From Eledone cirrhosa (Eukaryota): a stretch of 64,000 nt of DNA. Positions 4,430 through 64,000 of this stretch are shown here, in pieces; within the stretch, counting starts at the first letter, position 1; each line of letters starts with the position of its first letter. The stretch is taken from assembly GCA_964016885.1 (NCBI GenBank), contig OZ024742.1:80476001-80540000 (forward strand). Reading direction: 5' to 3'. A program made the translations under genes and the position numbers. The notes under the pieces are model-generated. The model was not told the origin of the DNA and made no database searches. It saw nothing but the letters and a program-made list of their open reading frames with translations.

Positions 4430-4563
4430 AGAAATATATATACATTTCTGTGTGTGTAATATATATATATATACACTCAGAAATATATATACATTTCTGT
4501 GTGTGTAATATATATATATATATATATACACACACAGAAATATATATACATTTCCGTGTGTGT

Positions 4564-7165: not shown

Positions 7166-7399
7166 CTGTTACATTTTCACTGCCAGCACCTACAGTATTT
7201 TTTCTTCGATCTCTATTTAATGGCTGATATTTCAAGATTACATTTCATTATTATTAGATAAGTGTTTGTGAATTGTGTCATTTTGTATAATAATTGTTTC
7301 TACTTCTATCATTGTGCATAATAATATATACATATATATATTATGGAGGTTTCAGTGTTCGTTGCTTTTTCCTAATAGTTGACTTACTTCTTGTATAAT

Positions 7400-14851: not shown

Positions 14852-14963
14852 ACAGTTTCTGAAGATTTGATCGAGCTAGCATTGTATACAATATTGAGTG
14901 CCACTGCTTGTAGTTTTCAGCAATTTTTAGACAACTTTATCAGAGAAACAATTGTTAGACTGT
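14852..14963 (+). ncRNA. Type I hammerhead ribozyme motif with 79-nt stem II region
   Basis: Stem I ACAGTTT/AGACTGT; core CTGAAGA (14859-14865); stem II TTTGAT/ATCAGA; GAAAC-AATT-GTT (14945-14956). Confidence 0.7.
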
Positions 14964-46400: not shown

Positions 46401-49223
46401 ATACCTATCTATTTCCCTACAAAATACTCTATCTAGATATGATCTGGATGAACCTATGCGATTTGACCAAGTCCACATTGGCACATTCGGGAAATCCAAT
46501 CGGTACCTGTCAGACAGTTAAAAACTCCTGAGCAGGTTGGTGAGGCTCTTGCACCTTCCTCCCCTATCCGCTGATCCCACACAGTCCCATCGTGCATCTA
46601 AGATCCCGTTCCAGTCGCCACTAACACCAAAGAGCGGGACGTTCCAAGAAGGTCTCCAGACGCCGGAAGAAATCAGGCCGCCCTGCTCCTGTCGGGGCAT
46701 AGACGGCCACTAGACTCAAAGCTTGCCCGTCTCCGCTGGTCACGTCTAGCACCACCACTTACCTTCTGGGGCCAGGAAGATGGCCCGTATGGCGAGATCC
46801 AATCCTCTCCGAAAAAGCACAGCAACTCCTCCCCATCGATCCAGGACCACTGGGAGATGCGTACAAATTGTAGCCGCCGAAGATCGGTGCGAAGGCCCGT
46901 GCTTCGGAGATTCTGGTCTCGCTGATGGCCACTACATCTATGTTTAGTGACCTGAGGTCGTTGAGCAGGTTGCCCTGCTTCCATGACGACCCCAAGCCAC
47001 GCGCATTTATGCTGCCTATTCTGAGTGAAGTCATGTTGAAATGGAGTGGGAAAGATGGGAAAGACCTCTTACCTTACTTCTCGTAGAGGAAGGCTGGTTT
47101 GTCCATCCTTTTCACTGCTTGTGGCCTCCTCCGAAAGGATATCCTTATACATCCTCCTGGAGAGTGTTTGTCGGAAGTCTCCGATGTCTTTGGGGAATTT
47201 TTGTTTTAGTGTCGTGTACGTTTTCTGTGTGATGCGAGTGATTTGTATGTGTGGAGGTGGTTTGAACTTTTGGATTGTTGTATCATCTTTTTCTGTGATG
47301 CTGGTGTTGTGTTGGATGTAGTGTAATAATTGGTTGTTGTTCAAATTTAATGCTGTGTAGTGTGTATCGTTTTGGTTGTTTTGTTTTGTTTGCGTTTGTT
47401 GTGGGTTTGTTTCTGTTTCGCTTTTTGGTGACTTTTGTGGTGTTGGTGATGGTGGTGATGGGGTTAATGATGGTGATGGTGTTGGTGTTTGTGGTGATGG
47501 GGTTGGTGATGCTGGTGTGGATGGTGGCATATCTGTCCTAACTTTTTTGTTTGTTAATTTATTTGTTTCCCTCTGTATTTTGTTTTTTGAGGGGGAGGGA
47601 AGAGAATTTTTTCTTTTTTGGTTTCTTTTTTTCTTTTTTCCTGATACCGTTTCCCACTCCTCGCCGTCACAATCTGTCTCCAGTTGTGATAGGCCGGGGA
47701 GTGGAAAATCCTCCACAGGCGTTGGTTTCGATTGTGGCGTGGTGGATGATGTAGGCGCTGGTGCTAGTTCTGGCGCGTTGGGTGGTGGTGGTGTTGGTTT
47801 TGCTACTGTTGCTGGGGTTGTTGCTGTTACAGTTGCTTCTGTTGTTGCTGCTACAATTGTTGCTGCCATCTCTGCTGCTGGTGGTGTTGATGGTTGAAGC
47901 ACTGAGGTGGGTAGGAGAGGTGGCCTCAACCTTTTATCCTGAGGGCAGAAAGCCCTTAGCTGGGTTCCTTCACCACAAACGACACACCTAGGCCTTCTGC
48001 CCTCGACAATTACGGTGAGGTGGCTGCCGTCAGTGAGGTATATTACCTCTTGGATCTCCTCAATGCTTTTTTGATCCGCTTGGATCAGGAGCACCATCCC
48101 ATATCCGGACCAGTTCTCCTGCCTTTCTTTCGCTATTTCGATTATCTTGGTGTTGGCTTCGATGCCGGCGAGAACGGCAGCTATTAGCCAGGGAATTTCG
48201 GTGGCCGGGAAAAGTGGGTGACCCTGATCTTAGGAGTCTCTGGCCACAATAGCTTGGGACGAGTGTGATGTCGTCACTTCTTAATGGGGCCCTGGGGTGT
48301 TCTTTAGCCTCCTGTGGTGTTTAAAAGAACACGTCCACGGTTCCATATTTCTGCCCACGTCTGATGTGGGTTTTTTTTGCCCACATATGTCCCAAAGCTT
48401 TTTAGATTTGGGACTCGGATGCCCGTTCCACTCGGCGTGATTTTATATTAATCGTTCTATAAGACACGGTGCATAGGCGCCGACGCTCCATTTTTTTGGG
48501 GGGGAGGGGGGGGGGGTGACCCTGTCCCATCTTTCTTTACCATTTTTTTGGCTTCTTCTAATTCCTCCTGAGTTACCTGAAATGCTTCGCATTCTTTTGC
48601 TACTCTGGCAAAACTCAGGGTGGTTGTCTTAATGTAATTGTTGTTGTTGTTGTGATCGTTATTTTTGTTATAATTAATTTTAGTTTCAGTTGTGGTGGTG
48701 GTGGCGTCAATGGTGGTCGGTGTGGAAGAGTTCATTTTGGTTGAATTCATTTCTATATCACGAGTTAACTTATTTTTTTACTTTTGTTTCAGTTGTCGCG
48801 GTGGTGGTGAGGGTGGTGGTTGTCGTGGTGGTGGTGGCTTTAACACCTGCAGTCATTGATAATGGCGGGAAATGAATGTCTGCCTGAGACAAATTTAAAA
48901 TATTGCTATTGCTTATATTTTTAGTGTTTGCAAACGTAGTAATATTTACAATGTTGGTGTCGGTGTGAGGTGTTAGTTTGTGAGAAAGGAGTGATTCTGA
49001 GTCAGCCATCATTTTTCAAAGAAACATTTTTGTTTGATAATTATAAAAGTTTAAATTTTGGGCTCAAGGCCCCAATCTTTTTGGGTGTCCTTTTCAGATA
49101 ACAATGTATGTGCACGTATATACAGTTAACAATAAAAATTTTCCATGAATGGCAATTTTAAACAACTGAAAATAACAAAACTTTGCGGAGCTCACGAAGA
49201 AACGATTTACTACGTAGGTCGCC
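43412..49223 (-). mobile_element. Full-length but frameshifted Tx1-clade LINE
   Basis: ORF2 fragments 43640-47034 are nearly identical to 35576-38995. ORF1 fragments at 47069-49012 are divergent. Flanked by (AAT)n and (ACT)n(AAT)n. Confidence 0.93.
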
Positions 49224-49665: not shown

Positions 49666-50669
49666 TGGAAGATGTCTTATCAGTATAGAGTCTGTGTTCA
49701 GATGGAAGAAAACAACCTACACAAATACGTGACTGATAGTAAGTAGCCAATGATCAGAAATGTACTGTAGGAGAGGACAATACACCAGAGGATGTCCAAG
49801 GAGGAAATAACATCAAGGAGAAAGAGCAGCCTTCAGGAAAAATCCCTTCATAGTACCTTCTTTGAGAAAACTGAATTCAGAGATCCACAGACATGGAACT
49901 AGTTGAAAAGAGGAGAACTTAAAAAGGCTACAGAAGGAATGCTAATGGCTGCGCAAGACCAGGCCCTCAAAACGAAGTGGTTGAAACGCCATATTTACAA
50001 GGAGGAGGCTAGCCCACTGTGCAGGATCTGTGGAGAGAGAGAGGAGACTGTGGCTCACATTGTATCCGAGTGTAAACTCCTAGCCCAGACTCACTATAAA
50101 GTCTGGAGACATGATGTGATGGGCAGGGTGATCCACTGGCACCTATGCAAAGTAAACAATTTACCACATTCTGAGAAGTGGTATGAGCATAAGCCAGAGT
50201 TGGTGATAGAAAACGATCAGGTGAGGGTGCTGTGGGATTTTAGAATACAGACGGACAAGAAACTGGAACACAATAGAACTGACCTGGTGGTTGTGGACAA
50301 AGAAAAAAGATCGTGCCTGATTGTGGATGTGGCCTGCCCATTCGACACGAGAGTGCAAGAGAATGAGAGGGAGAAAATTAACCGATACCAGGATTTAAAG
50401 TGGGAGGTAAAAAGGATTTGGAACTGCCATGAAGTCAAAGTGGTCCCGATTGTCATAGGCGCACTAGGTACTATCTCAAAAAGTTTCCAGGGACGGTTAA
50501 AGAAAATTGGCCCCTTCACGCTTTTTGGAACGATTCAAAAGGCATGCTTGCTGGGAACAGCAAGAACCCTCCGATACGTGCTGAATATCTGAGGCTGCAG
50601 GTAGTGTCTTGATATTCATTTCAACAAACTTTCCAGTTAATTAACATCAATGACTGAGACTCAAAGAAC
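49666..50669 (+). mobile_element. 5'-truncated R4/Dong-like retrotransposon (family 2)
   Basis: ORF 49903-50592 has CRIC..H..C, WRHD and HNRTDLVV..DVACP..EKINRY; paralogous to 34375-35250. Confidence 0.9.
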
Positions 50670-50675
50670 AATAAT

Positions 50676-52349
50676 GCTTTCTTTATTAGCCACATGGCTT
50701 TACACAAAGTAAGACATTAAGGAGAGTACATGACAATACAGGAGAATACATGACGGTACAAGTGGGCATTTCTGCGTGTAAAAAAAAAACAAAAAAAAAA
50801 ACAGAGGACGTAATAAAAAAGGAACAATGAAATATTTCCCAATAAGGGAAGACTTCCGAGGCCCATAGTGGAGAAAACCCATTAAAAAATCCACGGCAAG
50901 TGCACTCTAACAGTTTTCCACCTTCAATTTACAGGCACATACTCAGAATAGGCCTATTCACGCGGGCCATTCTTGCTTCTCTCACCCATCCTTCAACACA
51001 ATGCTGGGAGGAGAGCACTTTCCTCTCTACCCTGATTTTCTTATTCAAATAAAATTTGAAAAAGTTAATCAGGACCGAAGAGGTAAGTGCTCGTCTTCAG
51101 ACATTTCAGACGCGTCCACAATTCTATCTCTTTCGCCATGGCCACCAGACAGATAAACACTGCCTGCCCTTCCCGGCTAAAGGAAGAGGGCGGGGAAATC
51201 CTCATGATGGACTCAGCTGATAGCCAGAAATAAACCCACAGGCCACGCTCGGACTCTGGACGAGTGCTTGCAGAACGGTTTCGTCGCTATGCGCTCATCT
51301 CGGGAAGGTCCGTCTGACAGCACTTCCATGCCTGTAGAGTATATCCCGAACTAGCAAAGATCCACGGTAGCATGCCAGGCCAGGGATTTCTGGAAATTGT
51401 CCATAGGCCCCGGCCCGAAAGTTCTTCCGAAGAGATTGGCTAGTTGATTTTCGTCGACGCCTAGAGTTTCCCCAAGTACGTCGTCGTTCTTCCCCTCCAC
51501 TAATGCTCTATATAACGCCAAGGTGGAATTTCCACCGATCACATTGCCCGACTGGTCGAGGGCTGTGAGCGCCTGAAGATATTCCAGTCTCCAAGCGCTC
51601 CCTCTCGGTCTTCGCTTGACCCAAGACTGCAGCCGCGACAAGGAACGAGCTGGGGAAAGACGCGTCTAGCAAACGGCGACCACACCTTATCACCATCGAG
51701 GAAGAGGTGTAGATATCTGCGAATCAACAGCTACGGCATTCCCAGCCCTCCACGTAGCGAGTGTTGACAGCAGATGGACCGCCTGACCATCGAATCACGT
51801 CCTTTCCACAAAGAGCGAAAGTGCAAACACTCCAGCGCAGTCAGGCGAGGCTTAGGACAAGTCACGACCGTCAGGCGGTAGTAGATAACGGACGCGATGT
51901 ACGCATTTGCCACCACCGCTCTACCTTTCAGGGATAGCTTCCTCTCTGCCCATTTCTGCGTGAGAGAAGCCACCCTGCTCGTCACCTCGTTCCAGTTTTT
52001 GTCCGTCTGGAAATCCGGACCGAACCAGACCCCTAACAATTTAACCGTTCCGTCCGTCCAGCGCCCGACAAGGTTGTTGGACGGCATGGACCAGCCTCTC
52101 CCGAATGCGGAGCTGCAGGTCCACTGACTTTTCCTGGTTGATCATTGCTCCTGTCACCGCTTCGTATTCTCTTAGTGTATTGCTGATCGCCTCGATGTAT
52201 TTGTCGTTCGACACCACTACGGTGATATCATCCGCATATGCTGACACGGATCTTCCGCATCCTAGTTCGCGCGGCACACCGCTCAATGTCTCCAGTTTGT
52301 GCAGTAATGGCTCGAGTGTCAATACGTACAAGTGGGACGAGAGGGGACA
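50676..52349 (-). mobile_element. 5'-truncated decayed Tx1 copy
   Basis: Homologous to 35314-37056 (YADD region to 3' end); the 5' junction is in a SINE tail. Confidence 0.92.
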
Positions 52350-52350
52350 T

Positions 52351-52730
52351 AATTGTTTTTACTTTTGGCACAAGGCCAGCAATTACCCAGTTCATTAGTG
52401 GTACTTTATTTTATCGACCCCGTAAGGATGAAAGACAAAGTTAACTTCGGCGGGATTTGACGTCAGAATGGCAAGGGCCGTAATTATCTGCGTCAATGCA
52501 TGGTGTCCGACCCTCCACCAATACTGCCAATCAACCGCCATTACTAAACAGTAATAATTATTGTTTTTACCTTTTGCACCAGGCCACAGTACATTACTGG
52601 TACTTTATTTTATCGACCCCGTAAGGATAAAAGGCAAAGTTAACCTCGGTGGGATTTGAAATCAATAAAGGGATATAATTCTATGCTGGAAAGCATGGTG
52701 TCCGAGTCTCCACCGATTCTGACAATCCAC
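52351..52730 (-). mobile_element. Two tandem tRNA-derived SINEs (52351-52540, 52557-52730)
   Basis: Same family as 4119-4312. Confidence 0.88.
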
Positions 52731-53313
52731 ATAATGACAACTATAATGTCGGCAATAATAAAAAAGGGAAACAAAACGAATGCCAGTTGGCTTTGTTAGC
52801 CTTTAATCTGAGACGCCCAGTTCAAATATTCATCGTATACATATATATCTTAAATATTTCACTATGAATGTAACACGTTTAAAAGAAAAAAAAATGTTAC
52901 AATGTTATATATATATATATAAATTAATAAAGTAATGAATAAACAAAGAAACAGTTCCTTATATTAAAAAAAATTCATCATTTTATGATCGTTTCTAGGA
53001 TATATATGTGTTAGTGTTGGTATGCATATTCTATAGATCTATGTAAAATATTTATACAAACTATCAGAGGGAATATACATACCTACACATATATATGCTG
53101 TCTTCAAAAATAATGATATTTGTTTATTGAAAAAAACAACAAAGATTTAATACAATAGGTCTGTTTGGGAACAGGTTTTGAATTGACCAATAGAAAGATA
53201 GTGAAGGTCAAGATAGTAATATAGTAGTAAAAGAACCTTAATTTATGGGTAGAGGAAGGTAGATTTTAGTTTTGGATGGAAAAGAATATTATGAATGAAA
53301 GATTATTTTAGGG

Positions 53314-54021
53314 ATGAAAATAGGTCGTATGCTGACATCAGAAATTTGTTCATTGAATAAAACCAACAATATACATAAAAAATTCTTTAATATCCTTGAG
53401 AAGAACTTCCCGCCAAACCACAAATACCATCAAATTTTAAATATATCAACGGTTAAATTCTCCTACTCAACAACCAAAAACATAAAACAAAATATAAGTG
53501 CCTACAATGCATATAAATGTAAAAAAAACATGAGTATACCACCAGTACATCAAAGTAACCATAATATCTCCTCAGATACAGGATTCACGAAAAGTTGTAA
53601 CTGTAGAAACAAGGCAAACTGCCCATTAAAAGGAAATTGCCTTGTTATTAACATAGTATATAAATGTAAAGTTAACACTAAGGACTCAATTTATTCATAT
53701 ATAGGAGCTACCTCTAACAAATTTAAGGTAAGATTTAATACCCACAAACATAGTTTTAAAAATGCCGCACTAGCTAATACAACATCTCTAGCTGAAATAA
53801 TTAATAATTATAGAAAGAGGAATATAGATTATGACCTGACCTGGAGTGTGCTCAAAAGGGCCACCCCTTATCAAAATAATAGATATGAATGTAGATTATG
53901 TTCCCAAGAACTTTTTGAAATAATGAAATCTAAGGATATCCTATTAAATAAGCGACAGGAATTAATAATATCGTGTAATCATAAACTGAGAAAAACCCTT
54001 AAATATTATAAACCTAATTAA
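53314..54021 (+). CDS. PLE linker + GIY-YIG endonuclease (5'-truncated; first ~18 codons come from the inverted arm)
   Basis: CNCRNKANCPLKGNCL, IVY-x12-YIG, R..H, CRLCSQE, LLNKRQEL..CNHK. Confidence 0.88.
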   Translation: MKIGRMLTSEICSLNKTNNIHKKFFNILEKNFPPNHKYHQILNISTVKFSYSTTKNIKQNISAYNAYKCKKNMSIPPVHQSNHNISSDTGFTKSCNCRNKANCPLKGNCLVINIVYKCKVNTKDSIYSYIGATSNKFKVRFNTHKHSFKNAALANTTSLAEIINNYRKRNIDYDLTWSVLKRATPYQNNRYECRLCSQELFEIMKSKDILLNKRQELIISCNHKLRKTLKYYKPN

Positions 54022-54168
54022 TATACATTTTAGAAATTAATATATAAACTGTTTTTAATTTAGTTAACCTATAATTAATATTCTACTACTGATGAACTAC
54101 ATAATTTTACTTTCCTTCTTACAACTATCATTTCCTAAAACTGATACCATTAAGTAAACATATATAAT

Positions 54169-54226
54169 TGTTTCTACTTTAGGCACAAGGCCAGCAATTA
54201 CCCAGTGCATTACTGGTACTTTATTT
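54169..54226 (-). mobile_element. 58-bp 5'-truncated SINE with TSD
   Basis: TSD TAAACATATATAAT at 54155-54168 / 54227-54240. Confidence 0.85.
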
Positions 54227-54374
54227 TAAACATATATAATGCTTTAATTTCAGGTTTTGACTCTATGTTCCTTGAAATCTCTATATATTTATTATTTCTC
54301 ACTAATAAATTTACCTTCCCCCTCCCCCAATAATTATCTGTATGTGTATGTATTTGTGTATATATATATGTATA

Positions 54375-54419
<45 letters not shown>

Positions 54420-55177
54420 GTGTGTGTGTGTGTGTGTATGTGTGTATGTGTGTATATATATATATCTATATATATATATATTATTTTTATTTTCTTTTAA
54501 TTTCCCCTCATCTTTAACAGCACTCTTCAACTACATCTAACTCTTATTTATCATATCTATATGCTTTAGTATAATTTTATCAATATAAATATACACATCA
54601 ATTAAATTAATTCATATTCTTTTCATGGATGTATGTTTTTCACTAACACTCTTATCGTAAAACTTTAGTCTCCTTAGATATTTGCATTGAATTACTATTT
54701 TATAACAGCAACTGTTCGTATACCTTTTACTGACCTGACCTATTTTCACCCCTAAAATAACCTTCTCATTCTTCACACTCCATTCAAAACTGAAATCTGC
54801 CTTCTTCAACCCCTAAAATAAACTTCAATTACTACTATTTTACCATTTGGCCAATTATTAACTTTCTATTGGTTAATTCTAAACCTGTTACCAAACAGAC
54901 AGACTATATTAAATCTTTGTTGGTTTTATTCAATGAACAAATATAATTATTTCTGAGGTCAGCATACGACCTATTTTCATCCCTAAAATAATCTTTCATT
55001 CATAATATTCTTTTCAATCCCAAACTGAAATCTACCTGCCTCTACCCATAAATTAAGGTTCTTTTACTACTATATTACTATCTTGATCTTCACTATCTTT
55101 CTATTGGTCAATTCAAAACCTGTTCCCAAACAGACCTATGGTATTAAATCTTTGTTGTTTTTTTCAATGAACAAATA

Positions 55178-55319
55178 TCATTATTTCTGAAGACAGCATA
55201 CATATGTGTAGGTATGTATATTCCCTCTGATAGTTTGTATAAATATTTTACATAGATCTATACAATATGCATACCAACACTAACACATATATATCCTAGA
55301 AACGATCGTAAAATGATGA
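55178..55319 (+). ncRNA. Type I hammerhead ribozyme motif with 105-nt stem II region
   Basis: 9-bp stem I TCATTATTT/AAATGATGA; CTGAAGA (55187-55193); GAAAC-GATC-GTA (55299-55310). A mutated mirror copy lies at 52975-53115 (-). Confidence 0.75.
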
Positions 55320-55504
55320 ATGTTTTTAATATAAGGAACTGTTTCTTTGTTTATTCATTACTTTATTAATTTATCTTGACTCTGTTTTCCGTTAATTTTC
55401 ACCCAAAATAGTTTTTGAATCCATCTTCTCTTTTCATGATATCCGGATTACATTGAGTTCTTCATACGGATTGGACACTACCGTAAATTTTTGGTAGATT
55501 TATC

Positions 55505-55572
<68 letters not shown>

Positions 55573-55648
55573 CGTGTGTGTGTGTGTATAGGATCCGCTA
55601 ACGTGAAACAATTGTTCTCGGTATGGTGAACTAACTCTTGTGTAACCA

Positions 55649-55735
<87 letters not shown>

Positions 55736-55736
<1 letters not shown>

Positions 55737-57723
55737 CATGAAAGAAGAGTGACACGGTTTGCTATACAAAAAAGGTTTTTAATCTCATTGCTGACAATTG
55801 TTTCTCAGAACTGGTAGGTCTAGAAATCGCTATCCGCTTATTTTCGCGTTACTCGATCGCCAATACAATATTGTAACCAGTCATTTCATCGGAGCTTGCG
55901 AGAATGAGGAGAATATAGAGGCAATGAAAAGAATATACAGGCTTCTATATGTATTAGTAATGGCATTCAGTTAGAACAATAACACCAATATCAACAATGC
56001 TAGCAATAAATTATTTGAAATTATCACAACATCAATCTAGGTGGGAAGTATAGTATATCTATGATTTTAGCGTGTAAAACTAGCTGACATGAGGGAGATC
56101 TATAAAATTGACATGTAAAGACTGTCGTAGGGTGTATTATATCAAGTGTAAAGATAAGCTGGTGTTTTTAAACAATGTAGGTCAGGTGGCCGTAATAGTC
56201 GGTTTTTATCTGACCGATGAGGTATTTATCACTGTAGTAGAATGTGTGTGGTCTATATTAGATGAGAGTTCTGTCTATCTGTTCCATACTCAATAACATA
56301 CATGTATAAGACAACACTAACAAAGCTAAATAATGGGAAAGTTAATACATAGGTTATGGAGGTAATATATATATATATATATATATACATATATATACAC
56401 ACACACATGCACACAAACATATACATATATATACACACACACTCATACAAATACATACATACAAAGAAAAAACATGCTGACTATAATTATAGCAAGAGGA
56501 AGGTAAAGTTCCGTTGTAGTAGTATGTTGAAATGTTCTTGGATTTAGGATCAAGTGATGACAGCATCTGAGAAGAGATTAATTTTTGGGTTGATGAGGTA
56601 CTTACAGAAATTAGTGTTGTATAGAACTAAGGAGGCTAGAATATACTTAATGATTATATTTCTGTGGTGATTCGTGCAGAGTAGTGGCTATTCTAGTTGA
56701 AAGCTATGTTACGTCGGTTCGATTTATGGGGGTTTCAATCTTATGAATTTATTGGCAATCTTGTGTCTGCAGAAGATATATATTTCTAACTTGTTGTTAA
56801 GTAGCCTTTTTACATTTTTAAGGATATACTGTAGTTCTAGATCACATAGCCCACATTTGGACATACCTGTACTGTATGTTTTAGCAGCCGACAACCTCGA
56901 CCAGTTGATACTGTAGCTAGTGTTGTTGTCCTTCAGTTCCCATATTATTTTGGCGAGTGTTGTAGAACCCACAAGTGCACGATTTTCCATCGAGTGCCTG
57001 TGCACATACCATCTTTTTTTAAAAGAACCCGCGGCGGATCCAATATAATGCCAGGTGGAGTTGTCTGATTGACCGTACACATGTACACTAGGCTCGAATC
57101 GAGACATCTATTCGCCAATGCTAACGAGGCGATTGAATGGTTCAATAAAATACAAAATAGGGAGACGTGTAACTTCATACAATTTGATATAGACGACTAC
57201 TATGCATCCCTATCCCCAGCCACCCTAGATAAAGCGCTAATATTTGCCCAAAATAACTCCGATCTTACCCCTGAGGAAATTGAAATAATAATAGCGGCTA
57301 GAAGGACTATCGTAACATTTGAAAATAGCTACTGGGTAAGAAGAGATAGGATAAACAGCTTCGATATAACAATGGGATCAAATGACTCTGCGCAAATCCG
57401 ATGACTGGTTATAATTTTGTATTGGCGATCGAGTAACGCGAAAATAAGCGGATGGCGATCTCTAGACCTACCAGTTCAGAGAAACAATTGTCAGCAATGA
57501 GATTAAAAACCTTTTTTGTATAGCAAACCGTGTCACTCTTCTTTCCTGATTTATTATTACTCCAAGTGTTTACAACATAGGAATTACAGCGTACTCGCAG
57601 CATCACTATGTAAACGCCTCGTTGAGTCAAACTTAGCCAAGCGTTGATATCATCCAATACCCGGAGTACCATAACTGGACTACACCTAAGTGGACTGCAT
57701 ATAACCATTATTTATTACGCCGC
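55736..57723. mobile_element. Rearranged PLE: GIY-YIG + 3' UTR on minus, RT fragment + terminus on plus
   Basis: ORF 56724-57107 (-) has YIG, FKKRWYVH and CGLCDLE. ORF 57069-57404 (+) has QFDIDDYYAS and ITMGSNDSAQ. 55740-55885 is the reverse complement of 57401-57550. (TA)n on both sides. Confidence 0.88.
55784..55908 (-). ncRNA. Hammerhead motif variant (CCGATGA core, 81-nt stem II region)
   Basis: CTCATT..GCT-CCGATGA...GACTGGT/ACCAGTT...GAAAC-AATT-GTC-AGC-AATGAG. Mirror copy at 57398-57501 (+). Confidence 0.65.
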
Positions 57724-59524: not shown

Positions 59525-60372
59525 TGTGTGTGTGTGTGGCCGGGGGTGGGGGTGTACGTGTGTGTGCCTGTGCATGTGTGTATGTGTGTATGTGTGTATG
59601 TGAATGTAATGTTTCAAGGCCACAACAATGCAAAATGGATGAACAAGTAAGTAAGATGAAATAAGATGTTATGTGTTACCTTATTTATCTGTTCTGATAT
59701 TTCGACATAAATCTTTTTCCCCAGATGTCTATAACAAGGAACAGGTCTGGAATCCGTAAAGATTCTAAATCACACAGCTGGAAGCATTTCAGAATGCCAG
59801 AAACCCGCCACACTACGCTAGAAATATATAAAGAGCAAAGGATCACGAAAAAAAAAGAAAGAAAGAAATGTGAATAAAAAAAAGTAATGATTTTCTTTAA
59901 AAGTCAAACAAAGTAATGCTTTTCTTACCCGGAATATCTCAAAATAACATTTCAAGGGTGTAAATCCCTTTTCAAATACGCAATCGAGATAATTGTAACA
60001 TTCATTGAAGAAAATATATTTCGTTTTCTTTTGCACCCTTCTTTGTTGTTGTTGTTGCTGTTTTGCTTTTGAAAAGAGGGAGTTAAACCTCAAATATTAT
60101 GTTGAAATATACTGGGTAAGAAGAATGTTAATTCGATTTGGTTAATTTGTCATACTTTGTCCTTTAAATATGAACAGCGCAGTGTACTGGCCTTTTGAAA
60201 TACATCGCAATCATTGTTCAGGGGCGCTGCAATATATATATATATACATATACACATACATATTTATATATATATGTATATATAACCAAGAATGACGATG
60301 TTGTTCTACTCCAAAGGCTAAGGCAGTTGTTTGCATGATTGCAAACGAATTGAATTGTATCATTAATATAAT

Positions 60373-60547
60373 TATTTTTACTTTTGGCACAAAGCCAGCA
60401 ATTATTCCAGTGCATTACTGGTACTTTATTTTATCGACTCCGTAAGGATGAAAGGCAAAGTTAACCTCGGCGGGATTTGAACTCAGACTGAAAAGGGACT
60501 GTAAAGCAGGGCATCCGACTCTCTACCGATACTGCCAATCCACCGTC
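60373..60547 (-). mobile_element. tRNA-derived SINE with 19-bp TSD
   Basis: TSD ATTGTATCAT(T/A)AATATAAT at 60354-60372 / 60548-60566. Confidence 0.9.
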
Positions 60548-60749: not shown

Positions 60750-62097
60750 ACTACAAAGCCACAGACATACTACAAGCCCACAGACTCCAAGCAATATCTT
60801 CCTTTCAACTCTTGCGACCCTAGACACGTTAAAATTAACATTCCCTACAACTTAGCCAAGAGAATCTGTACTATAGTCTCCAATAAAAACACCTGTTACT
60901 TACGGCTACAAGAACTAAAGTACACACTCATAGGCATGGACTACCCTGCATCACTAATTGACAATGGAATCCAACGTGCCCTAAAACTCAGTACCCAGGA
61001 CCTTAAACACCCTAAAGTAAATCAACCGAAACTAAAAGCTCTTCCATACATCTCCATACACAACCTCCTCAACAATGAGGCTTTGACACCATCCTCCAGA
61101 ACATGGCTGTGTTAAAAAAGGACCATAGAATGAACCAAATCCTTCGAACACACGATATCATAAAGAGCAAAAGACAATCTAAGTCAAGGAAAAACATCCT
61201 AACACATGCCAACCACAACAAAGAAACCCACAGTAAAAAAATGCGATGGACTCAACCGCGGCATATCCATCAACCTAATAGAGGGTTCTGAATTCTATTT
61301 TAAAGAAGGACAACGTTTTATAGTAAAACACAATTTCACATGCGCATCAGAAACATTTAATATATGTATTAACTTACTCAGGTTGTCGAGAACAATACAT
61401 AGGCCAGATTGAAAACAGCCTCCGCTACCGCGTGACTGTCCATAGATCCCAAATTAAAATATGGGAATACAGAAACATACCACTGAGTGAACACATTGAT
61501 ATCTGTGCCGCCCCAAATCATCCCAACTTTAGAATCTTTCCCCTCTACAAATTTAAAGATAATTCCACCCACACCCAGCGCATCAGCAAGGAATCTCACT
61601 TTATTAATAAATACGGACCCCGTCTAAACACTTCTCCCTAAGACGAACCCACAACATACACACGTCAACATACATACCTACATCAGCATACATCCTACAT
61701 ACATTTCTATCCACATATAAACACAATGACGTACGTAAACACACATGTTCTGTGGTGCAACACAAATATACACAAATTGGCATACCTTTTGATGTCTATA
61801 GATAATAACGTGCCGACACACACATACATATACGCATACATGCATTGCACACTGATGGGCACATACATATTTGCACACAAGTATTCCCATACGGCAGGGC
61901 CTAATGGATTCCCTTTGCAGTACGTACGATCTGGACACTTACACACACCTTGGTGTTATGACAATACTATACACAATTTCACCCCTTTTATTATTAATGT
62001 TTTTGATGTTCTTTTGGGAGAATCGTTTTTTGCAAATTACTGAAAATATCGAAAAATGTACACCATTTGTACCAGTATCACAAAAATACTGGTCCAT

Positions 62098-62636: not shown

Positions 62637-63287
62637 TTAATTAGAAAGTGAACGAAAAAATATTGCTACTCCATTACCAAAGGTTTCTGGATCCCAGAAA
62701 ATAGTAATATACGTCTGGAACAGTTATCAGACAGAGATGTTATGGATAAAAAATATGAAATGAGATTTATAATGTGTTAAAAATTGTAAGTGAGGCTTGA
62801 AAAATAACGGGAAATACACATAAGAAAATAACACCCTTTATAATATAAATAATTGTTTCTAGTTTTGGCACAAGGCCAGCAATTAACCAGTGTATTACTG
62901 GTACTTTATTTGATCAACCCCATAAATAAATTAAAAATTGATAATAGAATTGTTTTGACTACAAGCATTTCTGCAACACGAATTGGCGCGAAATTTATAG
63001 TACTCATTCACGTGACATTCAACAACCAACCAAATCTTAATACCTCTGGAGCCACTTTTTTCACATAAAACAGGAAGAATTTCCAAAAGTGATCAGATTA
63101 GAGCAAACATCACCAGCGCTCTATCTCAAACTTATTTTTGAAAAGCATTAGAAATGCGCAACCGGTAAATACTTAAATCTAAAACTGAATACTAACGAAT
63201 ACTTATTACTAATTTAAACTTATTCCTAATTAAACTATTTTTCACTGAGAAAAATTTGTCAGCATATTCTTTTCCGTTTACCTTTCA

Positions 63288-63357: not shown

Positions 63358-64000
63358 ATTAGAAAGTAAATATAGCTACTCATTAGCAAAGGTTTCTGGA
63401 TACCAGAAAATAGTAATATACGTCTGGATTGGTGATCAGACAGAGATGTTATGGATAAAAAATATGAAATGAGATTTATAATCTGTTAAAAATTGTAAGT
63501 GAGGCTGGAAAAATAACGGGAAATACACATAAGAAAATAACACCCTTTATAATATAAATAATGAAGCAAAAGACATTGCAAATAACTTAAACATTGATAA
63601 TAGAACTGAAAGCCTAGCTAAACGTAAAGCCTATATGACACTGAAAGACCACAACATAGATTTTAATAAGGGACCTAGTTGTAGACTCATTAATCCTGCT
63701 AAATGAGAAATTAGTCTTGCCAGTAAAAAAATATTAAGAAATATAATATTAAAAATAACAATTAAAACAGAACTTTATCAATGGCTTAATACATCTTCAG
63801 TAGTTTCATGGTTTAATATTATACCTGAATGAAATAGATCTAGATTCACTCAATTCGATATAGTAGACTTCTAACTCTCTATTGCTCAATCCTTATTAGC
63901 CAAAGCATTAGAATTCGCTAAAAATTACACTAATATATTTGATTTAGAAGAGGAAGTAATTTTACATGCCCGGCAAACTCTACTTTTTGCCAAAAATGAA
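63355..64000 (+). mobile_element. PLE with inverted terminus followed by RT pseudogene (runs off right edge)
   Basis: Manual translation from ~63570: AYMTLKDH..PSCRLINPAK*EI..SKKIL..QWLNTSSVVSWF..FTQFDIVDF*LSI..LLAKALEFA. Confidence 0.85.

Follow-up and report, generated by a model that had tools for sequence, protein, structure and literature searches.

A candidate type-I hammerhead motif with a 105-nt hairpin stem II near the 3′ end of a Penelope-like element of Eledone cirrhosa

A discontinuous hammerhead is found in the 3′ UTRs of mammalian Clec2 genes; it belongs to a cellular mRNA, acts as a monomer, and has a stable helix III. Work by Lunse, Weinberg and Breaker in 2017 reportedly dealt with minimal type-I hammerheads of metazoan Penelope-like elements (PLEs). 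The hammerheads of PLEs are of type I, with a helix II of 6–8 bp, a small loop, and an unpaired nucleotide after position 9; the G10.1–C11.1 pair is highly conserved, and helix III is palindromic, such that these motifs are expected to act as dimers, yet in vitro cleavage of the minimal forms is poor even as dimers (Cervera and De la Pena 2014, PMC4209133). Wider spacing of the two halves of the core has also been described: the text of Perreault et al. (2011, PMC3088659) refers to a discontinuous hammerhead with “a very large loop structure”, and in Naiad PLEs, eight cases named “HHR_half_core” have halves 35–50 nt apart, with relaxed descriptors yielding no more motifs according to the main text (PMC8557442). 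Our literature search, which covered listings and main-text passages, returned no description of PLE hammerheads with a stem II longer than ~10 bp.

Here we describe a motif from a 64-kb stretch of Eledone cirrhosa DNA (the window), which is probably a type-I hammerhead of a PLE pseudo-LTR (pLTR) with a 105-nt hairpin as stem II, predicted from its core and its modeled fold to cut after A55310 as a dimer paired through helix III. Hammerheads in PLEs are known; stem II arms of 58–126 nt distinguish the forms described here from the published helix II of 6–8 bp.

Core motif and host element

The motif spans positions 55178–55319 of the forward strand and reads directly, in order, TCATTATTT / CUGAAGA / 105 nt / GAAA-C-GAUC-G-UA / AAATGATGA. 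Stem I comprises 9 bp, one of them G·U, between a 5′ strand at 55178–55186 (TCATTATTT = UCAUUAUUU) and a 3′ strand at 55311–55319 (AAATGATGA = AAAUGAUGA), and this pairing is present both in the minimum free energy (MFE) fold and in the pairs of the family alignment A1, described below. The 5′ core box C3-U4-G5-A6-N7-G8-A9, at 55187–55193, reads CTGA[A/G]GA in 19/19 family sequences aligned. On the 3′ side, the letters are GAAA (55299–55302), C (55303), GATC (55304–55307), G (55308), T (55309), and A (55310). This stretch (55299–55310) contains the 3′ core box GAA, the palindromic helix III ACGAUCGU, and A17: G12-A13-A14 is followed by the A15.1–U16.1 pair (the last letter of GAAA with U55309) and by an H17 that is not G (A55310), and the predicted cut falls between 55310 and 55311. 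Apart from H17, which is either A or U, the 3′ box and helix III are invariant among the 19 sequences of A1. Three helices thus surround the core in a type I topology, with stem I open-ended and stem II a long rod, and helix III has just two intramolecular pairs. The hammerhead core, the 9-bp stem I, the 105-nt gap, and the predicted cut after 55310 are therefore all as an earlier sequence-only reading had placed them.

That reading had also suggested, as a check, a motif search allowing a loop II of up to 150 nt. We searched both strands of the window with a descriptor consisting of CTGANGA, 8–160 nt, GAAA, any short helix III, UH, and a stem I of at least 5 bp, which gave two matches in the whole 64 kb, at 55178–55319 and at 14852–14963. 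Both matches have an 8-nt palindromic helix III (ACGATCGT and ACAATTGT), a feature that the descriptor does not require. In 150 first-order Markov simulations, a window had on average 0.31 matches when stem I was set to ≥5 bp and 0.027 when it was set to ≥7 bp, and a stem I of at least 9 bp occurred in 0/150 simulated windows. The expectation that standard motif searches miss the expanded form was borne out with Rfam, which returned no hammerhead family at the gathering threshold across the whole window and none at E ≤ 10 across 54700–55700. At E ≤ 1, the short-stem PLE forms in L095, L101, L103, and L120 were likewise without a hammerhead match; because the short-stem forms are missed as well, the null result of Rfam mainly reflects a blind spot of its models. 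Separately, Rfam places mir-297 and mir-466 matches over the insert at E values of 0.35–3.4, far below gathering, and we rejected these as low complexity driven by microsatellite sequence.

The motif is located 64 nt from the 3′ end of a 5′-truncated PLE. Upstream of it, on the same strand, a 240-codon open frame at 53299–54021 represents the C-terminal part of the element ORF, with a CX..C zinc-finger-like linker and a GIY-YIG-like endonuclease region. The 3′ UTR follows at 54022–55177 and comprises a microsatellite (~54340–54480), about two units of a ~235-nt tandem repeat (54739–55200), and the repeat families D10, D13, and D14. A partial duplicate of the motif at 54923–54967 of the same strand (D14, 91% identical to 55157–55201) carries the 5′ half, with TTTCTGAGGTCAGCATAC, and lacks the 3′ half. 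Other copies of the element also show a 5′-half duplicate, some 234 nt upstream of the motif, that belongs to the tandem repeat.

Downstream of the predicted cut, the 3′ terminal segment is 64 nt long (55311–55374), as delimited by the ends of BLAST matches and contigs. Many family copies stop at 55374 against (TA)n (BLAST; query position 235), and some copies, the one in the window included, extend a further ~20–35 nt, from 55375 to about 55400. In the short, high-depth contigs of one sample, loose ends at 55374 are (TA)n, and depth drops after 55393. At its other end, the window copy is truncated near 53346, where it adjoins an inverted copy of its own 3′ end. This inverted, 5′-truncated copy, on the reverse strand at 52906–53345 (inverted repeat I1, 379 nt, 97% complementary), ends at 52917 against (TA)n and contains its own hammerhead at 52975–53116 of the reverse strand, in which C3 is changed to U (TTGAAGA) and which the descriptor missed.

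A full copy of the element is available in L031, where the protein encoded at 53299–54021 continues as frames of 651 and 189 aa (ORF at 4456–1984 of the reverse strand). Two motif anchors on the reverse strand of L031, at 786 and 4786, are in direct orientation, 4.0 kb apart, and lie within 1.3-kb direct repeats (93% identical) that flank the ORF; a third anchor, at 7369 on the forward strand, is located in an adjacent inverted repeat (97%) and belongs to an inverted truncated copy. Direct motif copies thus flank the putative RT-endonuclease ORF of L031, as in the pLTRs that carry PLE hammerheads. PLEs are characterized by pseudo-LTR partial tandems, an adjacent inverted 5′-truncated copy, an optional tail, and a bias toward (TA)n (Craig et al. 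2021, PMC8557442, from the text of that paper), and the partial tandem, the adjacent inverted 5′-truncated copy, the optional short tail, and the microsatellite target are all present here.

The protein sequence gives less direct information. Pfam reports no significant domain in the 651-aa ORF or in the 240-aa fragment; YxDD-like and ..YIG.. motifs in this protein are seen by eye only. The nearest clusters in the ESM Atlas (score 0.96–0.97) have RVT_1, GIY-YIG, and HTH_animal assigned to part of their members, and these neighbors may be taken as a lead to a PLE. More weight for that identity comes from the genomic layout. In another element, at 61327–61641 of the window, and only there, PF01541 is matched below the cut-off (E = 9.5e-4).

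A first look at the genome yielded 1339 candidate copies of the family, 40 of which were scored; all 40 are 93–100% identical and have the 105-nt arm. This is a large and young family. The earlier assignment of the motif as a Penelope-type hammerhead is upheld by its intact CUGANGA / GAAA / UH core, its palindromic helix III, and its location in a pLTR.

It could be argued that the motif is a chance match, or a generic foldback or MITE-type hairpin unrelated to ribozymes, as AT-rich DNA easily yields short complementary runs and no curated RNA family matches the locus. This account has next to no probability: a 9-bp stem I was absent from every simulated window, the motif is located at a PLE 3′ end in a pLTR arrangement, its 8-nt palindromic helix III is common to the published PLE motif, and GAAACAATTGT occurs 57,976 times in the genome vs 1,734 times for a reversed control. 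Chance is excluded by these controls.

Structure and conservation of the stem II arm

Folding the insert (55194–55298) by itself or within the full 142-nt motif gives, as the MFE structure, a single long hairpin, imperfect and without branches, whose pairing begins one nucleotide away from each core box: C55194 and A55298 stay unpaired, and A55195–U55297 and G55196–C55296 are the first pairs. The MFE of the whole 142 nt is −27.8 kcal/mol (z = −2.59), with stem I and the rod both retained, and the fold constrained to the hammerhead is merely 1.7 kcal/mol above it. The same hairpin is recovered by RNAalifold and by pair counts in an alignment of family sequences, A1, in which four subfamilies (arms of 99–126 nt) are represented by 19 sequences sampled with the anchor GAAACGATCGT (22,419 occurrences in the genome vs 9,873 for the reversed control).

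In A1, stem II has 29 pairs, its helices are 98–100% paired, and two of its pairs show compensatory changes by RNAalifold and pair counts. In stem I, 8/9 pairs are kept, with at least 17/19 sequences paired at the inner seven positions, and there is one compensatory change from UA to CG. Three pairs are compensatory in all, for example a change from A–U to G–C at the fifth position of the arm, and several more pass through G·U intermediates. Mapped onto the hammerhead structure, A1 has 97.5% of its cells paired, compared with 22–61% after sliding the partners, and 3/500 shuffles reach its covariation score. Taken alone, A1 gives moderate covariation support, since its subfamilies are closely related and also supplied the sequences from which the structure was derived.

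Arm lengths of 105, 116, and 126 nt differ between subfamilies by a duplicated unit of 10–11 nt. The substitution C55201 is private to the window copy; all contigs aligned there, from one sample, have a T, which restores a pair.

This fold departs in several respects from the arm as it had been read from the window alone. The insert had been described as not closed by a helix at the core, whereas the MFE fold closes it one nucleotide from each box, in agreement with the comparison of subfamilies. Pairing within the short hairpin GCATACATATGT, with which the insert was thought to open, finds no support in that comparison, and the proposed TAGG...CCTA pairing would be broken by substitutions in subfamily 1b. 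The suggestion of an expanded, possibly multi-branched stem II stands with regard to the expansion, which is great, and falls with regard to branching, as the family has a single imperfect rod.

The G10.1–C11.1 pair is not at the core. After A9, there is the unpaired C55194, the nucleotide expected between A9 and stem II, then an A–U pair (G·U in other subfamilies), and then G–C, which occupies this third position in 18/19 sequences of A1; on the other strand, an extra A precedes G12. There is also a competing conformer: unconstrained RNAalifold favors pairing of UUUCU, from stem I and the core, with AGAAA of the 3′ box, a conformation that is inactive.

Long-arm motifs elsewhere in the genome

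We further investigated 94 distinct anchors of the form GAAAC(AATT/GATC)GTH, taken from the window, from the 200 kb beside it, and from the matches listed first in three pattern searches. For 53/94 of these sampled anchors, there is an upstream CNGANGA whose flank makes at least 4 contiguous base pairs with the sequence after H17, compared with 11/9400 when the upstream 150 nt are shuffled and 0/94 when they are reversed. Three of the 53 inserts are 11 nt long, ten are 20 nt long, and 40 measure 58–126 nt. With a 70% identity cut-off, the inserts form 13 clusters, and in 11 of these the inserts are 58–126 nt long. The sequence of stem I is different in every cluster, and its complementarity is kept. 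Fifteen of the 53 matches, among them several high-copy sister families with CCGAUGA cores, carry a C at core position 4, where the canonical core has U.

The long inserts share a closed layout. A helix closes within 2 nt of both ends in 35/40 long inserts, vs 38/1200 shuffled inserts and 0/240 shifted windows. The mean number of in-register pairs at insert positions 2–7 is 5.2/6 within clusters and 3.0/6 across clusters, where the 5′ side of one cluster was combined with the 3′ side from a different one. In 7/11 representatives of the long clusters, the first position of the insert is unpaired. Among the sampled anchors, the layout of a core split by a long arm thus appears to be general in the Eledone cirrhosa genome.

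A second alignment, A2, of 10 sequences from five related families, including the window motifs at 14852–14963 (forward strand) and 55786–55899 (reverse strand), provides more extensive covariation. Compensatory changes are found in 12/25 pairs, and 0/500 shuffles reach the score; these pairs include 6/7 of stem I and a distal helix inside the arm. The arms of A2 also share the invariant internal blocks TGTA, T.GAGT, AGC, and T.TAGAC. Unconstrained RNAalifold missed the proximal stem II helix in this alignment because MAFFT had placed a one-base bulge in different columns, and for this helix only the four pairs shared in register were counted. Covariation across genomic copies, which had been put forward as a check on the motif, is thus seen in both alignments, with compensatory changes at three pairs of A1 and at the 12/25 pairs of the sister families.

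The remaining 41 anchors, which lack the full motif, comprise 11 with a one-mismatch core or a 3-bp stem I, 10 head-to-head stubs, 3 that adjoin simple repeats, and others that are decayed or unrelated. In the 10 stubs, the two arms meet inside the 3′ strand of stem II or just upstream of it (e.g., L171 and L121).

The same data bear on the notion that a secondary insertion of unrelated AT-rich or microsatellite-like DNA into loop II disrupted and inactivated a once-normal short hammerhead in this copy or lineage. The insert is indeed rich in TA, TG, and CA runs and draws the weak mir-297 and mir-466 matches; the genome also contains short-stem forms (11 and 20 nt); and the length of the arm varies by the duplicated 10–11 nt unit (105, 116, 126 nt). 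However, every family copy scored has the arm, so that the family has been amplified to over a thousand candidates with the arm in place, and the arm is preserved by compensatory changes. Ten other clusters have the same closed-hairpin layout with unrelated arm sequences, and closure right at the core would not be expected of a random insert (it is seen in 3% of shuffled and 0% of shifted controls). A killing insertion is therefore very improbable, and we regard this reading as largely refuted. For the same reasons (an arm in every family copy scored, compensatory changes, and ten further long-insert clusters of the same layout), the word “insertion”, used for the arm at the outset, is not an apt description of it.

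Predicted cleavage and relation to known systems

The reading that we favor is that of a PLE hammerhead with a hairpin stem II that would cleave as a dimer. In place of a stable helix III, the motif has the 8-nt palindrome ACGAUCGU (55302–55309), and cleavage as a dimer is predicted because the published minimal hammerheads of PLEs have an 8-nt palindromic helix III of this kind. The unconstrained MFE of two strands is −67.0 kcal/mol, vs 2 × −27.8 kcal/mol for the separate strands, and all 8/8 palindrome positions are paired between strands in this fold. In such a model, a read-through transcript of a partial tandem like that of L031 would carry two motifs, and the helix III strands of the two motifs, or of two RNAs, would pair into an 8-bp helix III and create two active sites. 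A cut after A17 would then free a unit-length RNA whose 5′ start is the 64-nt terminal segment and whose 3′ end is ...GAAACGAUCGUA with a 2′,3′-cyclic phosphate. The long stem II would be tolerated because it points away from the core, and it would likely stabilize the fold without loop–loop contacts.

Several observations weigh against cleavage activity. One is the displaced G–C pair together with the extra A before G12; A9 and G10.1 form a metal site in the hammerhead, and displacement of G10.1–C11.1 could lower activity. The competing UUUCU/AGAAA pairing, as modeled, would also count against activity. Most of the genomic arrangements seen are inverted pairs, which outnumber tandem ones; two sense motifs would thus not be located on one transcript, which again counts against activity. 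Finally, the text of a study of one PLE reports that cleavage is not needed for insertion in vitro and that no RNA-seq ends fall at the site (PMC11167929).

A serious alternative, which we nevertheless hold to be unlikely, is that the motif is a hammerhead-derived relic that has lost cleavage, with the long hairpin and the 3′ half-core kept for retrotransposition itself. The hairpin might be a structure recognized by the RT/endonuclease, or a site at which reverse transcription starts, stops, or switches template such that inverted copies are made. The arms of the sister families, with their invariant blocks and covarying distal helix, exceed the needs of a passive spacer, and the 10/41 incomplete anchors that are head-to-head stubs are joined in the 3′ strand of stem II or just upstream of it, both as such a role would have it. 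The displaced G10.1–C11.1 pair and the reported dispensability of cleavage for insertion in vitro (PMC11167929) point in the same direction. In the element's own family, however, every invariant core nucleotide is kept in 19/19 sequences, and stem I, which is relevant solely to the hammerhead fold, covaries across families (6/7 pairs). The change of U4 to C in 15/53 matches, several of them in high-copy families, can be read as a sign of lost cleavage; according to the text of Perreault et al. (2011, PMC3088659), however, a U4C hammerhead variant has lower activity in vitro and keeps enough activity in vivo to support viroid infectivity. A role in retrotransposition and cleavage are, moreover, compatible rather than exclusive.

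A related and tentative proposal, which we rate as doubtful, is that the arm is a second functional RNA domain placed on the ribozyme, namely a hairpin for binding of the RT/endonuclease or for a cDNA snap-back or template switch that makes inverted copies. If so, one structure would couple RNA processing with integration, and PLE clades described as “hammerhead-less” may carry still longer arms. An arm that is conserved and covarying, and within which truncation and inversion points are frequent, offers a handle on the unsolved mechanism of PLE integration.

A PLE hammerhead with a hairpin arm, which remains our preferred reading, would have consequences beyond this locus. At least 11 repeat clusters with split cores and covarying stems, to which Rfam is blind, are present in one 3-Gb animal genome. 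If this layout holds more widely, genomic counts of hammerheads are underestimates, and claims of hammerhead-free PLE clades would need to be re-tested. The families with C at core position 4, which exist in short and long forms, provide natural material on the question of cleavage in vivo.

In terms of classification, the PLE minimal hammerhead is the simplest neighbor for the Eledone motif, which departs from it in the length of helix II and in the lack of G10.1–C11.1 at the core. The two have in common the pLTR location, the type-I topology, the CUGANGA...GAAA...UH core, a poorly defined loop I, a helix III palindrome that pairs only between two copies, and an unpaired nucleotide after A9. 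In contrast to the 6–8 bp helix II of the minimal form, however, the Eledone stem II is a 105-nt rod (58–126 nt in 11 clusters), its first G–C pair is displaced from the core with an extra A before G12, and its stem I has 9 bp rather than 4–5 bp.

The Naiad “HHR_half_core” cases resemble the Eledone motif in that the halves of a core are found in a PLE 3′ UTR at a spacing beyond that of standard descriptors. In the main text of PMC8557442, with which the comparison is made, neither stems nor covariation are reported for them and they are classed as without canonical hammerheads, whereas the Eledone halves are 58–126 nt apart and are accompanied by stems I and II.

The Clec2 hammerhead shares with the Eledone motif a complete core whose strands are parted by a long intervening sequence. 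In Clec2, this sequence is an unconserved loop of hundreds of nucleotides, whereas in Eledone it is a covarying rod, within a retroelement, and helix III is not stable.

Animal non-LTR retrozymes, as described in the texts of Cervera and De la Pena (2020, PMC7229834) and of a preprint by Li, Clavereau and Pollet (2026), likewise have type-I hammerheads with a weak palindromic helix III in PLE-linked repeats. Retrozymes are short, non-coding tandem units (PMC7229834), whereas the Eledone motif is located behind the putative RT-endonuclease ORF of an autonomous element.

Tandem repeat and alternative pairing in the studied element

The 3′ UTR of the studied PLE (Penelope-like element) contains a tandem repeat of about two ~235-nt units (54739–55200, plus strand), each of which terminates in a copy of the hammerhead stem I 5′ strand and the 5′ core box; the arm, that is, the insert that folds as stem II, and the 3′ half of the motif come after the last unit only. 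The same repeat arrangement is present in other copies of this family. In alignment A1, which comprises 19 subfamily sequences of the hammerhead family, columns 4–12 can pair with columns 150–158 (about 55180–55188 with 55298–55306 in the window). Pairing of UUUCU, from stem I and the core, with AGAAA, from the 3′ box, would lengthen the rod through the core, and such a modeled fold could possibly represent an inactive conformer or a switch.

Across the Eledone cirrhosa genome, the word GAAACAATTGT occurs 57,976 times versus 1,734 times for its reversed control, and GAAACGATCGT occurs 22,419 times versus 9,873 for its reversed control, a control count high enough to indicate that the reversed word also lies within some repeat.

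Further hammerhead motifs and half-hammerheads

A second PLE family lies on the strand opposite to the studied element, with its end adjoining (TA)n. Its motif (55786–55899, minus strand; AGCT-CCGATGA-81 nt-GAAAC AATT GTC-AGC) has the split layout of the studied hammerhead, and it is accompanied by an ORF fragment (56724–57107, minus strand) and an inverted arm (57401–57551). Core position 4 is invariably C in this family (35 copies), for which the genome yields 1847 first-look candidates. A third full motif (14852–14963, plus strand; ACAGTTT-CTGAAGA-79 nt-GAAAC AATT GTT-AGACTGT) and the second family have homologous arms; a (TA)n tract is found ~70 nt beyond this third motif.

Yet another family is represented by a stub, an element end keeping only part of the split core (55590–55650, plus strand), which is flanked by (TG)n and (TA)n and retains only TCCGCTAACGT, GAAACAATTGTT, and CTCGG in succession. 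Full copies of its family, sampled at genomic loci L119, L120, and L127, have an 11-nt stem II, CTGA[A/G]GA, and a stem I of 4–5 bp. At loci L085, L121, L127, L130, L162, and L171, element ends are paired head-to-head, with the arms joined within the stem II 3′ strand or just upstream of it, resulting in mirror-image half-hammerheads with 20–100 nt between them.

Other repeats and similarity to a known RNA

Among the other retroelement pieces in the window are a PLE-like GIY-YIG ORF fragment (61327–61641, plus strand; PF01541, E = 9.5e-4, below cut-off) and a PLE-like piece at the window's end (63580–64000, plus strand), whose ORF start resembles the N-terminal part of the protein of L031, a full copy of the studied PLE. 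Upstream of this ORF start is a 709-bp direct repeat (62672–62853 and 63381–63562), each copy of which is preceded by (TA)n. ORF fragments of other retroelements are located at 47069–48229 (minus strand; a low-complexity frame rich in proline and threonine), 49903–50592 (plus strand; a weak zf-RVT match), and 51731–52358 (minus strand). A short interspersed repeat with five copies in the window (52349–52477, 52548–52676, 54164–54240, 60369–60497, and 62849–62925), one of them within the 3′ UTR of the studied element, contains GGCACAAGGCCAGCAATT, GGTACTTTATTTTATCGACCCC, and GGGATTTGAAC in that order and looks like a tRNA-derived SINE.

At locus L101, positions 1323–1487 give a sub-threshold score against the Rfam family WsnRNA46 (E = 5e-7, below gathering). 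This region is a long near-perfect hairpin, with a hammerhead carrying a 62-nt arm just downstream, and is most likely an inverted repeat rather than a homologue.
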